Positions 14,891-18,231 of a stretch of DNA of 33,749 nt are shown one piece after another. The stretch is from Dethiobacteria bacterium (GTDB lineage Bacteria > Bacillota > Dethiobacteria > DTU022 > PWGO01). The notes under the pieces were generated by a model, which did no database searches, was not told the DNA's origin, and saw only the letters and a program-made list of their open reading frames with translations. The first letter of the stretch is position 1; every line of letters begins with the position of its first letter. The translations under genes were made by a program, and so were the position numbers. Where the stretch lies: positions 1 to 33,749 of the forward strand of contig JBASYW010000016.1 in NCBI GenBank assembly GCA_049277715.1, written 5' to 3'.

Positions 14891-15003
14891 TTTTCCTCCC
14901 TGTTAAAAACTCATATTCGATAATAAAACATCGGTGATAATACTTTATTACAGTATATCAAAAGTTAAAAAAAAAGGATATTGTTTAGCGGCGTTTGCCT
15001 TTA

Positions 15004-15032
15004 TTGAAATGATGTAAACTCTGTGTTAAAAT
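15004..15032 (+). promoter_or_regulatory. sigma-A promoter for tRNA-Pro
   Basis: TTGAAA (15004-15009), 17-nt spacer ending TGT, TAAAAT (15027-15032), about 60 nt upstream of the tRNA. Confidence 0.55.
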
Positions 15033-15091
15033 GAATACTGCCTTTGTGTTGGTTGAACCGGGCGGGAGCCCTTTTAAACCATCGGGATTGT

Positions 15092-15168
<77 letters not shown>

Positions 15169-15171
15169 CCA

Positions 15172-15208
15172 CCGGAAGGCCCGGGGGTAAAGGGCTTTCC
15201 GGTTTTTT
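15172..15208 (+). terminator. rho-independent terminator after tRNA-Pro
   Basis: 11-bp stem CCGGAAGGCCC / GGGCTTTCCGG (one G-U pair), 9-nt loop, then TTTTTT. Confidence 0.75.
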
Positions 15209-15304
15209 GTGTGTTGTAGTATGCCGTAGTATTTAGGCCCCAAAAGGTGCCGGAGTCCGTGAAATGATATTTCCGTCCCTGAAAGGTTAATCCTCGCCTT
15301 AATC

Positions 15305-16864
15305 TTATAATTTACCTATTAACTTTTTATTAAACCGCCCTGCTCTTGCCATTAAACCTAAAGGAAATGGTTCATCATGTCTTTTGTTATCTTTACAACT
15401 CCATTCTTCAGCCAGACATTTTAATTCCTCTGCTGTTATCAAAACTATGTTTCTACCTAAGTGATCGGAGGTATATTGAAAGGCAAGTATTTCAGACTCT
15501 TCTGTAAAATCAGGGGCAATGACAAGAAAAACAGGTACAGGCTTATCAGTACTTTCCATATAATCATGGAATTGCTTGATATGGTCTTTAAGATTAACTA
15601 AGCCTGGATTTTCTTTGCTTTTATTATCCCACATAACATACATGTCTTTAAAACTTAATAACCCATCTGGATGATTTGTACCAACCTGTTTTAAAGGTGT
15701 ATGGTTTAACTTATATTCAAATAAATATTTTGTAGCTTCTTCAAAATATCTTTCAACTTCTATATCTTTAGAAATAATATTGTGGCCTCGAAGTAATGAG
15801 TAATCTCTAATTGAGAGAGCCTCATACATTTCATACCATTTTTCTCTTTCATCCTCTGTTTTCTGTGCTGCTTGCCTTAAGTTGTCATAATATTTTATTA
15901 TTCTTTCAATTCTTTCTTGTTTTGTTCCACTAACAGGTAAATCTAATTCAGAACACCACTTATGTAACGACTCATTGTCTAACCCATTTCTTGATGTAGT
16001 ACCCCCAAGTAAAATAGATGGCTGAATATTTCTAATAACTTTTTCTGTAAGTTTTTCTACGGTATCGTTATTACTCCAAAAAATATTTGATTTATCAAGA
16101 GCATTCCTTAAGTACTGTTTCTTTTTAACAAATTTGTATTGCATGAGTATATTATAATTTGGTTCTTTAATTTCTAAATTTAAAATCTTTTTCATTACTT
16201 CTGCCAACTCTTTAGGAATAATATCAAGATCATCACCATTTTGGTCACGTATAGAAAATAAAAGCCCTTGCTTTTGTAAAAACTTTCTGGCATCTACAAT
16301 TTCTCCTCTAATATGAATGTCATTATTAACTTTGGGATATTTCCCTAACTTAGCTTCTAAAAAGGCATTGTCCCACTCATTTATATACAATCTTTCCCTT
16401 AATTTTTTAAGTAAATTAATTTCATCTGGACTTTTATTGTCTTGATATTCCCAGGCAACTTTCAGCACAAAATAATATAATTCAATGTCTTTTTGCCTCT
16501 GTGAATTTGTACTTGATAAATCTGAAACATCCATTTCATTAGATCTATTAACCATTTTTTGTTCATACGCCATTACTTTTTCTTCAGTTTCTTCACTACT
16601 TAAAACATATCCATCCTCATTAAGCAAAATATCCCTGATAATTATTTTGCTTAATACTCTATAATTTAAATTTAGGTGACCGTAAAAGGAATATTCCATA
16701 CTTTTAGAAACAGAGTCATAATGTAAGTATTGAGGTTTTACTTTTAAAAGAGCATCCTTTGTTTCTTCTTCACTTAAGTTGCGATGGTCAACTACATATG
16801 CTGAAGCAACCCTTCTTAAGTCAGGTATCGTTCCTATTGCTTTAATAACATCATCAAATTTCAC
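15305..16864 (-). CDS. orphan nuclease: unknown N-terminal region + SAP-like motif + FokI-type PD-DxK cleavage domain
   Basis: Uninterrupted 519-codon ORF with a GTG start 5 nt after GGGGAGGTG, strongly AT-rich. SAP-like motif: aa 296-330 [32 protein letters not shown]. Nuclease-like blocks in aa ~365-490: HPD400G, WD413-N-K415, [18 protein letters not shown] and VLITAEELK, colinear with FokI PDG, VDTK, ADEMQRYV, FLFVSGHF and AVLSVEELL. Confidence 0.6.
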
Positions 16865-16901
16865 AATAGCACCTCCCCAAAAATTGTTTTAAGTTTATAT
16901 C

Positions 16902-16924
16902 TTTCTACAAAAGTTTCTACAAAA
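16902..16924 (-). repeat. tandem 11-nt direct repeat in the nuclease promoter region
   Basis: TTTCTACAAAA (16902-16912), G, TTTCTACAAAA (16914-16924) on the + strand, which reads TTTTGTAGAAA x2 on the coding strand. It lies 38-60 nt upstream of the GTG start and just upstream of a TATAAA -10-like box. Confidence 0.7.
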
Positions 16925-17241
16925 TGACACATATTTCCTGCCCAATATATAAAAAGAGCTGGTTTTACCCCGGACCCTGGCATATTATGAAATGCCCTTC
17001 CCGTTTTGCCTGCTCTAATGCCTGCCTTAAAACATCAGATGCCCTTTTTAAGTAAACCGGATAATAATCATCTGATCCTTGCTTAACTTCAGGCTTTGGC
17101 AACCTTTTTTCTATGATTGACCCCGAATCATATATAAATGTACAATGAGATATTACAAGATATTAATGCGCTCTGCAGTCTTAAAATCCAATTATGGTTC
17201 TTTCTTAAAATAGAGCGCAATTAAACTATGCGAGGGACAAT

Positions 17242-18231
17242 ATGCCAAGAAAATTTATAGCGGCAACATTAATTATTATTATGGCCGTAACCCTTACCGC
17301 ATGTGACAGAGAGGATGACTGGAGGGACAAGGATTATGACTTATCCCTGCCGCAGCTTGGGGAGGATGGTTGGTATGAGGTTTTTACGGACCATTTTGAC
17401 GGCGATTCCTTAAATGAAGAAATCTGGACATATTCTCCTCACTGTTTGCGGTGGGAAACCCAGACAGGAAAGGAGATACACTCAAATTACTGGTGCGATG
17501 ATATGGTCAGTGTAGCGGACGGCTATGTTTCCATACGTGCATGCGAATCGGACAGTCATAGCTGCAGCAAGGGACTCTGCCCGTCCGGCGGCCGTTTTTC
17601 CGGCGGTATCGAGACCAGAAGGATTATATCTGATGATTTTGGCGACAACAAGGGCGACAGTGATGAGCTCCTGTTCTCGCAGGCTTATGGCTACTTTGAG
17701 ACAAGAGTCAGGTTTCCTGATGCCCCCGGACTTTGGGCGGCATTCTGGCTGCAGTCTTCCAACCAGAGAAAGGTGGGCAGCGAGGGCTGTGATGGCACCG
17801 AGATAGATATCTTTGAATCCGCTTTCCGGAAAAAGCCCCATAGAATGGGGCACGCCCTTCTTTGGGACGGTTATGGCCGCGATAGCAAAGTATCCGGGTA
17901 TATTACCAATTTGGATTACAGTTTATATGAGGGGTTCAACACCTTTGCTCTCAAATGGACGCCTGAATACTATGTCTTCTATATCAATGGCGTTCCGACC
18001 TGGGCGACCAATAGCGGCGGAGTATCCAAGGTAAGGCAATTCCTAAGATTGACGGTAGAGATAGACGCCGGCGATGCCTATGGCCCTCACGGCCAGAGGA
18101 TCGGGCATTTTAAATACGGGGAGGAGCCCGTATTCATAATAGATTACGTCAAGGTTTATCAAAATTCCAATTATGAGAAATACATAATAGATGATGATCT
18201 ATTCCCCGGCGAGCTTGATTATATTAATTGA
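17242..18231 (+). CDS. GH16-family beta-glucanase lipoprotein
   Basis: Signal peptide with lipobox LTAC. GH16 catalytic motif EIDIFE in GTEIDIFES, plus WAAFWL and beta-jelly-roll-type blocks. ATG lies after GAGGGA. Confidence 0.85.
   Translation: MPRKFIAATLIIIMAVTLTACDREDDWRDKDYDLSLPQLGEDGWYEVFTDHFDGDSLNEEIWTYSPHCLRWETQTGKEIHSNYWCDDMVSVADGYVSIRACESDSHSCSKGLCPSGGRFSGGIETRRIISDDFGDNKGDSDELLFSQAYGYFETRVRFPDAPGLWAAFWLQSSNQRKVGSEGCDGTEIDIFESAFRKKPHRMGHALLWDGYGRDSKVSGYITNLDYSLYEGFNTFALKWTPEYYVFYINGVPTWATNSGGVSKVRQFLRLTVEIDAGDAYGPHGQRIGHFKYGEEPVFIIDYVKVYQNSNYEKYIIDDDLFPGELDYIN

Follow-up and report, generated by a model that had tools for sequence, protein, structure and literature searches.

The stretch of DNA considered here is the contig JBASYW010000016.1 of a Dethiobacteria bacterium (assembly GCA_049277715.1), which was analysed at its whole length of 33,749 nucleotides and is called the window below. 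On its minus strand, at 15305..16864, lies a complete open reading frame (ORF) for a protein of 519 amino acids (aa) plus the stop codon, which starts with GTG and belongs to a conserved family of ~520-aa proteins. The protein is most likely a restriction-type endonuclease of FokI-type modular design with a new targeting and gating module; its role in defence and its trigger we infer. The family to which it belongs is widespread and unstudied, and its members are probably methylase-independent restriction or immunity nucleases. Tentatively, we take the gene to encode a self-contained and horizontally mobile DNA endonuclease of the restriction type, in which an N-terminal head would gate cleavage, dependence on DNA modification would be Type IV-like, and the role would be in innate defence.

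The nuclease domain

The C-terminal domain (aa 340-519; 15308..15847, minus) is assigned to the FokI-type PD-(D/E)xK cleavage domains from its fold and its invariant residues. In the full-length AlphaFold2 model (pLDDT 88.7, pTM 0.79) it is joined to the rest of the protein by a disordered, flexible linker at about aa 331-339 (15848..15874, minus; pLDDT <50 at aa 333-336). When the model is compared with PDB by Foldseek, FokI chains take the first three ranks (E 6.4e-6 to 9.4e-5, probability 0.98-1.0), among them 2fok_B (E 6.4e-6) and 1fok_A (E 2e-5), both with probability 1.0. N.BspD6I, a FokI-like nickase, is fourth (E 5.4e-4), and HindIII and the small subunit of R.BspD6I (2p14; TM 0.50 on the target) come after it. 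The TM scores over the whole chain are low because the domain arrangement differs. The initial annotation of the window, made from the sequence without database searches, had proposed a FokI-type domain and a comparison of its model with the FokI structures (1FOK/2FOK) as a check; the top ranking of FokI supports the proposal.

The same annotation had named D400, D413 and K415 as catalytic residues, whose variation among homologues would have spoken against the assignment. These three residues, and E375 with them, do not vary among 43 homologues or among relatives with as little as 25% identity, including proteins of Halorubrum virus Humcor1 and of a Natrinema megaplasmid. Their codons on the minus strand are at 15740-15742 (E375), 15665-15667 (D400), 15626-15628 (D413) and 15620-15622 (K415). 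A block-by-block alignment to FokI, also proposed at the outset, stands in its catalytic part. In hhalign, PD400G falls on PD450G and D413-N-K415 on D467-T-K469 of the FokI cleavage domain, a weak alignment (E 0.1, 31 columns, with a FokI sequence that we supplied ourselves) in exactly the proposed register. The other three blocks fall, in the model, on the secondary structure expected of each (a helix, a strand, and a strand followed by a helix), without any significant alignment.

FokI_cleav_dom is the only nuclease family that the homologues match in Pfam, and only one variant protein (P0214; 50% identity to the window protein within the nuclease domain) has a precomputed match to it at E <= 1e-5. 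From the model we accept that aa 340-519 adopt a FokI-like PD-(D/E)xK fold, in the sense of a structural and functional resemblance at scores short of formal Pfam membership. If the hhalign register is extended, the positions of the FokI dimer-interface residues D483/R487 would be occupied by the invariant residues Q431/Y435.

SAP motifs

Directly before the linker lies a canonical SAP/HeH motif (aa 293-330; 15875..15988, minus), seen with Pfam and in the model. The window protein itself scores below threshold at aa 298-329 (SAP_new25, E 1.3e-4, 22 vs 26.3 bits; SAP, E 3.7e-3, 17.3 vs 23.9 bits). Homologues exceed the Pfam SAP threshold at the same columns, the best with 39.6 bits (E 3.7e-10; cut-off 23.9 bits), and 14 and 17 of the 43 aligned members match the SAP profiles (PF02037, PF18953). 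In the model the region folds as a helix (aa 297-306), a loop and a second helix (aa 315-327). Both the homologues above threshold and the helix-loop-helix thus bear out the motif that had been read by eye at residues 296-330. The preceding sub-domain, D4 (aa 233-292; 15989..16168, minus), is the least conserved one and contains a degenerate SAP/HeH repeat at aa 249-287, so classed because the first of two SAP repeats that Pfam detects in ~600-aa variants (P0137) is collinear with it.

The N-terminal region

The region before the canonical SAP motif, some 290 aa, had been described as unrecognisable. It does remain without a family in Pfam, NCBIfam, PADLOC and PHROGs and without a fold match in PDB. 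It is not the single block that this description implied: it comprises a helical head, a winged-helix-like element and the degenerate SAP repeat. Modelled alone, aa 1-292 give a confident structure (pLDDT 91, pTM 0.87), for which Foldseek finds no significant match in PDB, the best having E ~1 and the weak ones being all winged-helix proteins. A fold search of BFVD yields generic Mrr and restriction-enzyme folds only. The fold libraries were PDB and BFVD, without the AlphaFold Database, so that the lack of a matching fold means the lack of a solved or viral-predicted match.

Three sub-domains precede D4. D1 (aa 1-117; 16514..16864, minus) is an all-helical head without a fold match, with R18, D26, Q45, R69, N109 and E110 invariant. 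D2 (aa 118-178; 16331..16513, minus) is a three-helix unit with the motif VAWE..KSPDE.NLLRKLR.RL, for which the only matches are weak ones to the ENT domain, in variants. D3 (aa 179-232; 16169..16330, minus) contains a winged-helix-like helix-strand-strand-helix (aa 186-228), with weak matches to the winged helices of MarR, RPC62, ORC and eS10. The N-terminal head is conserved at a mean majority frequency of 0.65-0.73, compared with 0.73 for the nuclease domain; D2 and the nuclease domain, at 0.73 each, tie as the best-conserved parts of the protein.

In an exhaustive search, a profile of the N-terminal module finds 283 proteins among 1.84 billion representatives and, among the matches listed, the module occurs in other architectures only as variants of the same design, having zinc-ribbon or basic N-terminal extensions, 2-4 SAP repeats, or a swapped head (P0214). 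For the alternative head of P0214, too, the searches gave no identity. Distant relatives are encoded by Halorubrum virus Humcor1 (HrrHm1_140; L097 5455-7095) and by plasmid pNVE500 of Natrinema versiforme (WP_138247088.1; L098 5455-7095). Both are of 546 aa, are 23-25% identical to the window protein from aa ~171 on and have the same ADG...WDNK motif, and their N-terminal ~170 aa are unlike the bacterial head. D3 is where the core common to these haloarchaeal proteins and P0214 begins. Since the haloarchaeal relatives share only the part from D3 to the nuclease, the conserved core consists of the winged-helix-like element, the SAP repeat(s) and the FokI-like nuclease, and the heads are exchangeable.

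Some variants are of interest in their own right. In P0144 (594 aa) a zinc ribbon is added before the conserved head, and the N-terminal segment of P0147 (437 aa), VRLSKSTIAWLNSL..., appears by eye to be ribbon-helix-helix-like. These extensions hint at the N-terminus as a place where further modules for DNA binding are taken up. Since P0147 stops shortly after its SAP motif, it is perhaps encoded by a fragment of a gene. In the ~610-aa variant P0137 (L099 8861-10541) two SAP repeats are present and the N-terminus bears a basic extension. Its gene is followed by an HTH_3/Peptidase_M78 gene (ImmA/IrrE-type) and a DUF4411 gene, a toxin-antitoxin-like or defence-like pair, the whole lying between ClpB and glycosyltransferase genes.

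The exchangeable heads bear on the main rival of our reading, namely, a triggered or autoinhibited single-gene immune nuclease like Shedu (SduA), whose head would sense a phage protein, DNA ends or a replication intermediate and release selective or abortive DNA degradation. P0214 and the haloarchaeal relatives keep D3, SAP and nuclease and swap the head, and the compact full-length model (pTM 0.79), with one flexible linker to the nuclease, fits sequestration of the kind known in FokI. The organisation as a single gene without a methyltransferase, the ImmA/IrrE and DUF4411 module beside one variant, and a weak fold match to Escherichia coli SduA (Foldseek rank 32, E 1.1) point the same way. 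However, the SduA match is not significant, no trigger was found, defence-island enrichment is lacking, and from phylum to phylum the head shows high conservation, in which it differs from many sensors, whose evolution is coupled to that of phage proteins. On balance, we consider the triggered nuclease rather unlikely.

Distribution and conservation

A protein search with the 519-aa query returns 283 relatives; of the best 120, nearly all run to full length (about 515-525 aa), with identities of 48% or more. Full-length homologues number in the hundreds, at 40-70% identity, and come from many bacterial phyla. The distribution is extremely patchy: in data with one genome per species, covering 185,579 species, there are 123 matching places. 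The carriers, all of them metagenome-assembled genomes (MAGs), belong to Dethiobacteria, Syntrophomonadaceae, gut Oscillospiraceae and other Clostridia, Chloroflexota, Armatimonadota, Fermentibacterota, Myxococcota and Victivallales. For comparison of loci a set of 84 was used (80 from species-representative genomes and four metagenomic), in which ORFs were called by a simple longest-ORF procedure. The gene is intact in 83 of the 84. In the alignment of 43 sequences the mean column identity is 65%, and the N-terminal half is about as conserved as the C-terminal half. Purifying constraint acts along the whole length of the protein.

The sole archaeal copy of the main family is on a 5.3-kb contig of 'Candidatus Thorarchaeota' (L023; JABCSP010000174.1). 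It is 92% identical to the copies of Aegiribacteria MAGs (L030, L033), which casts doubt on an archaeal member of the main family; mis-binning of the contig is probable, a very recent transfer being the alternative. In the 2.44-Mb chromosome of a Chloroflexota MAG (OZ242304.1) there are three intact paralogues (L024, L036, L045), with aa identities of 59-90% that are even across all sub-domains, and with ~70% nucleotide identity that is limited to the ORF.

Strong conservation over the full length could also be expected of a nuclease of the cell's own DNA metabolism, acting in repair, recombination or the processing of chromosomal or competence DNA and not devoted to defence. The housekeeping neighbourhoods described below are in keeping with this, as is a gene position common to some clades (e.g. 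L018, L026, L027). So are the SAP motifs, which typically occur in proteins of chromatin and of repair; Ku70 and PIAS, for instance, are eukaryotic SAP proteins that work on the DNA of chromosomes. Such a role is nevertheless very unlikely, given the 123 places in 185,579 species, presence that differs between strains at the same site, foreign GC content almost everywhere, no conserved operon partner or synteny, and the fact that the closest nuclease folds are all those of restriction enzymes.

Genomic neighbourhoods

Clustering of the ORFs within four genes on either side of the nuclease gene in the 84 loci shows no conserved partner, the commonest neighbour family being present in six loci and at inconsistent positions. 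The 137 immediate and 126 second neighbours represent 128 and 161 different Pfam families, respectively, mostly housekeeping. These 263 neighbours include no recurrent DNA methyltransferase, helicase or ATPase, as judged from the 25 commonest Pfam families, which are those listed. The commonest family of immediate neighbours, 23S_rRNA_IVP (a four-helix bundle), occurs in four loci, and DUF559 (Vsr-like), phage integrase and HTH_3 in two each, too few to interpret. AbiE, AAA_15 and ImmA/DUF4411 genes are occasionally nearby. A toxin-antitoxin pair is ruled out, there being no recurrent small neighbour.

No cognate methyltransferase is present in the window, and a crude regular-expression screen finds a candidate DNA-methyltransferase motif within 5 kb on either side in only one of the 84 loci. 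The initial annotation had regarded the gene as standing alone, and held that routine pairing with a methyltransferase, or a conserved non-defence context, would speak against its reading. The 84 loci agree with it on all three counts: the gene has no conserved neighbour family, routine pairing with a methyltransferase is not seen, and neither is a conserved non-defence context.

The same results bear on the possibility of an ordinary Type IIS enzyme with a cognate methyltransferase that lies elsewhere in the genome or was lost. The FokI-like cleavage domain and separate N-terminal DNA-binding region of the protein are what such an enzyme would have, and in the Natrinema relative an N6 DNA methylase gene is found ~5.4 kb upstream. 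But no methyltransferase is linked in the 84 loci, an unprotected sequence-specific cutter would be lethal, and the three paralogues of one chromosome would each require an unlinked methyltransferase of their own. Moreover, the putative recognition region is ~50% identical across phyla, whereas Type II specificity domains usually diverge much faster. Because the methyltransferase is missing, we do not count the gene as a Type IIS restriction-modification system, and an ordinary Type IIS origin is barely credible.

Mobility and strain variation

The GC content of the nuclease gene is lower than that of its flanks in nearly all 84 loci. In the window the gene lies in an interval that varies between strains (15169..17241) and runs from a tRNA-Pro(TGG) gene (15092..15168, plus) to a GH16 gene. 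Two metagenomic relatives (L090, L091) are syntenic with the window at 77-84% nucleotide identity, through a phosphodiesterase/sulfatase-like gene, tRNA-Pro and GH16. The interval is 298 bp long in L091 (1576-1873), 1,231 bp in L090 (3770-5000) and 2,079 bp in the window, where it holds the low-GC insertion. L091 represents the empty site, and L090 carries other cargo there, namely the genes for a 151-aa regulator of the PadR-like kind and a small membrane protein (184 aa). The synteny, and with it the homology between the relatives, breaks off exactly at the 3' end of tRNA-Pro. The region following tRNA-Pro is a hot-spot that differs from strain to strain. In the window, L090 and L091 alike it lacks an integrase and att-like repeats, and no terminal or target-site repeats flank the insertion in the window. 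Elsewhere, a tRNA gene lies within 1 kb of the nuclease gene in 10 of 60 other loci examined, the window being additional (p ~8e-6 against an expectation of 3.5%, which is our own rough estimate of the background rate).

Similarity between loci, including the paralogues and the virus and plasmid relatives, is confined to the ORF. The haloarchaeal pair illustrates this: one is in a temperate virus and the other on a megaplasmid near an integrase gene, and they are 74% identical to each other, with DNA similarity that stops at the ORF ends. The gene thus behaves as an accessory, horizontally acquired unit that moves as a bare ORF. An insertion sequence or transposon is ruled out, since the paralogues are similar over the ORF only (~70% nucleotide identity), flanking repeats are lacking, and the spacers match no other locus. 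A phage-borne origin of the main family is ruled out as well: it is absent from the 2.9 million viral contigs of IMG/VR, and in the phage collection the only match is one distant haloarchaeal virus.

A different site is seen in another Dethiobacter lineage, in two relatives whose homologue is 70-71% identical to the window protein (L005 11641-12822; L010 2583-3764). There, the next gene downstream encodes a truncated phage-type integrase of 168 aa, and five clustered tRNA genes come after it, an arrangement reminiscent of an integrative element whose edge has decayed.

Movement as a bare ORF is also what a selfish nuclease gene would show, one maintained chiefly by its own horizontal spread and of little or no benefit to the host, acting as a homing endonuclease does or as an addiction element of the restriction type. 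Insertion between housekeeping genes, often beside a tRNA gene and without an integrase or repeats, a GC content lower than that of the host nearly everywhere, and several copies in one genome are all consistent with this possibility. On the other hand, the insertion sites vary although the DNA-binding region is conserved, so that a common homing target does not exist. Free-standing homing genes thrive in viruses, and the family has no member among the IMG/VR contigs. There is also no antitoxin-like or methyltransferase partner that could create addiction, and the copies, 83 of 84 of them intact, are under evident constraint. A purely selfish element is accordingly improbable.

The locus in the window

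The ORF is preceded on the coding strand by a Shine-Dalgarno sequence, GGGGAGGTG (16870..16878, minus; cacctcccc in plus-strand letters), and a spacer of five nucleotides (CTATT) separates it from the GTG start codon (16862-16864). Direct reading of the sequence therefore confirms a clean 519-codon ORF with a strong Shine-Dalgarno sequence, on the minus strand. The GC fraction of the ORF is 0.29-0.32 and that of the flanks 0.45-0.57. In AT-rich DNA of 30% GC, with 283 homologues in the databases, an ORF of 519 codons is not a chance occurrence. The identical protein in NCBI (MFY9113697.1) is a 'hypothetical protein' of a Dethiobacteria MAG.

As to the neighbours that had been named, tRNA-Pro at 15092-15168, the GH16 gene at 17242-18231 and the absence of a partner ORF are confirmed. 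A 'gene remnant' that had been placed beside them could not be verified: the spacer at 16865-17241 has short ORFs only and no similarity to other loci. A promoter scan gives no convincing promoter for the nuclease gene. After tRNA-Pro there is a terminator-like hairpin (15181-15202), and an ORF of 80 aa that runs antisense over tRNA-Pro (15001-15243, minus) is almost certainly spurious.

A possible role in defence

How might a nuclease of this kind spare the DNA of its host? In the mechanism we envisage, the SAP and winged-helix-like modules would tether the protein to double-stranded DNA. With one active site per monomer, as in FokI, two molecules would have to pair on the DNA for a double-strand break. 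The head would recognise a feature of foreign DNA and only then license cleavage, so that host DNA would be spared. In the absence of a methyltransferase, self-DNA would have to be spared in this way, that is, through a head that licenses cleavage on a non-self feature only. The feature may most likely be a base modification that the host lacks, as for Type IV enzymes, and the biological role would be innate defence against phages and other incoming DNA.

Two considerations favour modification as the feature recognised. One is that the head is conserved across phyla like an enzyme domain, which suits a constant chemical ligand such as a modification. The other is the precedent of winged-helix fusion endonucleases, for which standing alone without a neighbouring methyltransferase serves as an indicator of modification dependence; the dependence has been confirmed experimentally for the enzymes that require N6-methyladenine (PMC11037411). 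The nuclease gene stands alone in the same sense across the 84 loci. More broadly, it is possible that we are dealing with a family of single-gene immune nucleases, in which a novel sensor head for a DNA modification or other non-self feature licenses a FokI-type domain mounted on tandem SAP motifs, and which spreads between phyla as a bare ORF into hot-spots such as tRNA 3' ends without a recombinase of its own.

Several results weigh against modification-dependent defence by a FokI-type enzyme. With regard to the sensor, none of the modified-base readers looked for (SRA, EVE, YTH, DpnI-type winged helix, sulfur-binding domain, McrB-N) is detected in the N-terminus by Pfam or by Foldseek against PDB, and three intact paralogues in one chromosome would be superfluous if a single modification were what each of them recognised. 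Heterodimers, or different specificities of the three, are possible. With regard to the nuclease, the window protein has no match to Pfam FokI_cleav_dom (PF09254) even at E <= 10. On rescanning, the best scores among homologues are 13.8-20.1 bits, under the 25-bit threshold, and the matched part is the catalytic core alone (profile positions 37-97 of 188). FokI is not found in PDB by phmmer or profile searches, whether with the full protein, a profile of the full family or a broadened profile of the nuclease domain. With regard to defence, the enrichment of defence genes around the gene, for which the initial annotation had proposed to test, is not seen. The neighbours are overwhelmingly housekeeping genes, and PADLOC matches among the 137 immediate ones are sparse and mostly to generic helix-turn-helix models. 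The protein itself gives only noise against PADLOC-DB v2.0.0 (GajB, E 0.019; PglX, E 0.036) and no match to NCBIfam and PHROGs models, and in databases the members of the family are named only 'hypothetical protein' or 'SAP domain-containing protein'.

Since its neighbours are mostly housekeeping, the gene is not embedded in defence islands, and pipelines that discover defence systems from such islands would miss the family. If its members are indeed methylase-independent restriction or immunity nucleases, they would add a new sensor fold to the readers of modification and non-self, extend FokI-type cleavage domains beyond Type IIS systems, and give bacterial SAP motifs a concrete role. Zinc-finger and TALE nucleases rely on the cleavage domain of FokI, and a compact natural FokI-like nuclease with different gating and a different dimer surface could therefore be useful. 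A modification-dependent cutter, if it is one, would be a tool for epigenetic mapping.

Comparison with known systems

FokI (1FOK/2FOK, PF09254) and N.BspD6I/R.BspD6I are the best structural matches and share the catalytic register, D400/D413/K415 of the window protein corresponding to D450/D467/K469. As in FokI, a linker connects the nuclease with a DNA-binding region of its own standing at the N-terminus, which includes a winged-helix-like element, and there is one active site per chain, from which cleavage of both strands is expected to depend on dimers. Unlike FokI, the protein is without a cognate methyltransferase and has tandem SAP/HeH motifs, which FokI does not have. Its N-terminus does not resemble the D1-D3 recognition domain of FokI, which is missing among the fold matches listed for that region, and its sequence similarity to FokI is under the Pfam threshold. 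Where FokI has D and R for the dimer salt bridge, the equivalents would be Q and Y, if the register is as extended above.

In its organisation the protein resembles the modular, NTP-independent Type IV enzymes (DpnI/HhiV4I-type, PMC11037411; MspJI/AspBHI), in which a sensor or DNA-binding module and a nuclease are joined in a single polypeptide. Like them it stands alone without a methyltransferase and is horizontally mobile, and it would be expected to cleave at a distance from the feature recognised. It differs from them in having neither homology nor a fold match to SRA, DpnI-type winged helix, YTH or EVE. To our knowledge, the characterised enzymes of this class use DpnI/MspJI-type PD-(D/E)xK, HNH, GIY-YIG or PLD nucleases, and none has been described with a FokI-type domain and SAP. 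Our literature searches found no description of an architecture that combines SAP with a FokI-like nuclease.

Shedu (SduA) is similar in being a single gene with a C-terminal PD-(D/E)xK nuclease and an N-terminal region that is possibly gating, to which the exchangeable heads among the relatives of the window protein may be compared. However, the window protein has no significant similarity to it (no PADLOC match; Foldseek E 1.1), possesses SAP motifs, has a head that is conserved and not hypervariable, and is encoded outside defence islands. With the eukaryotic and viral SAP proteins (Ku70, PIAS, MKL1; PF02037/PF18953) it shares the motif itself, aa 296-330 fitting the SAP profiles and aligning to the SAP of MKL1. 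Unlike in those proteins, the motif is here fused, in prokaryotes, to a restriction-type nuclease and is preceded by a degenerate second repeat.

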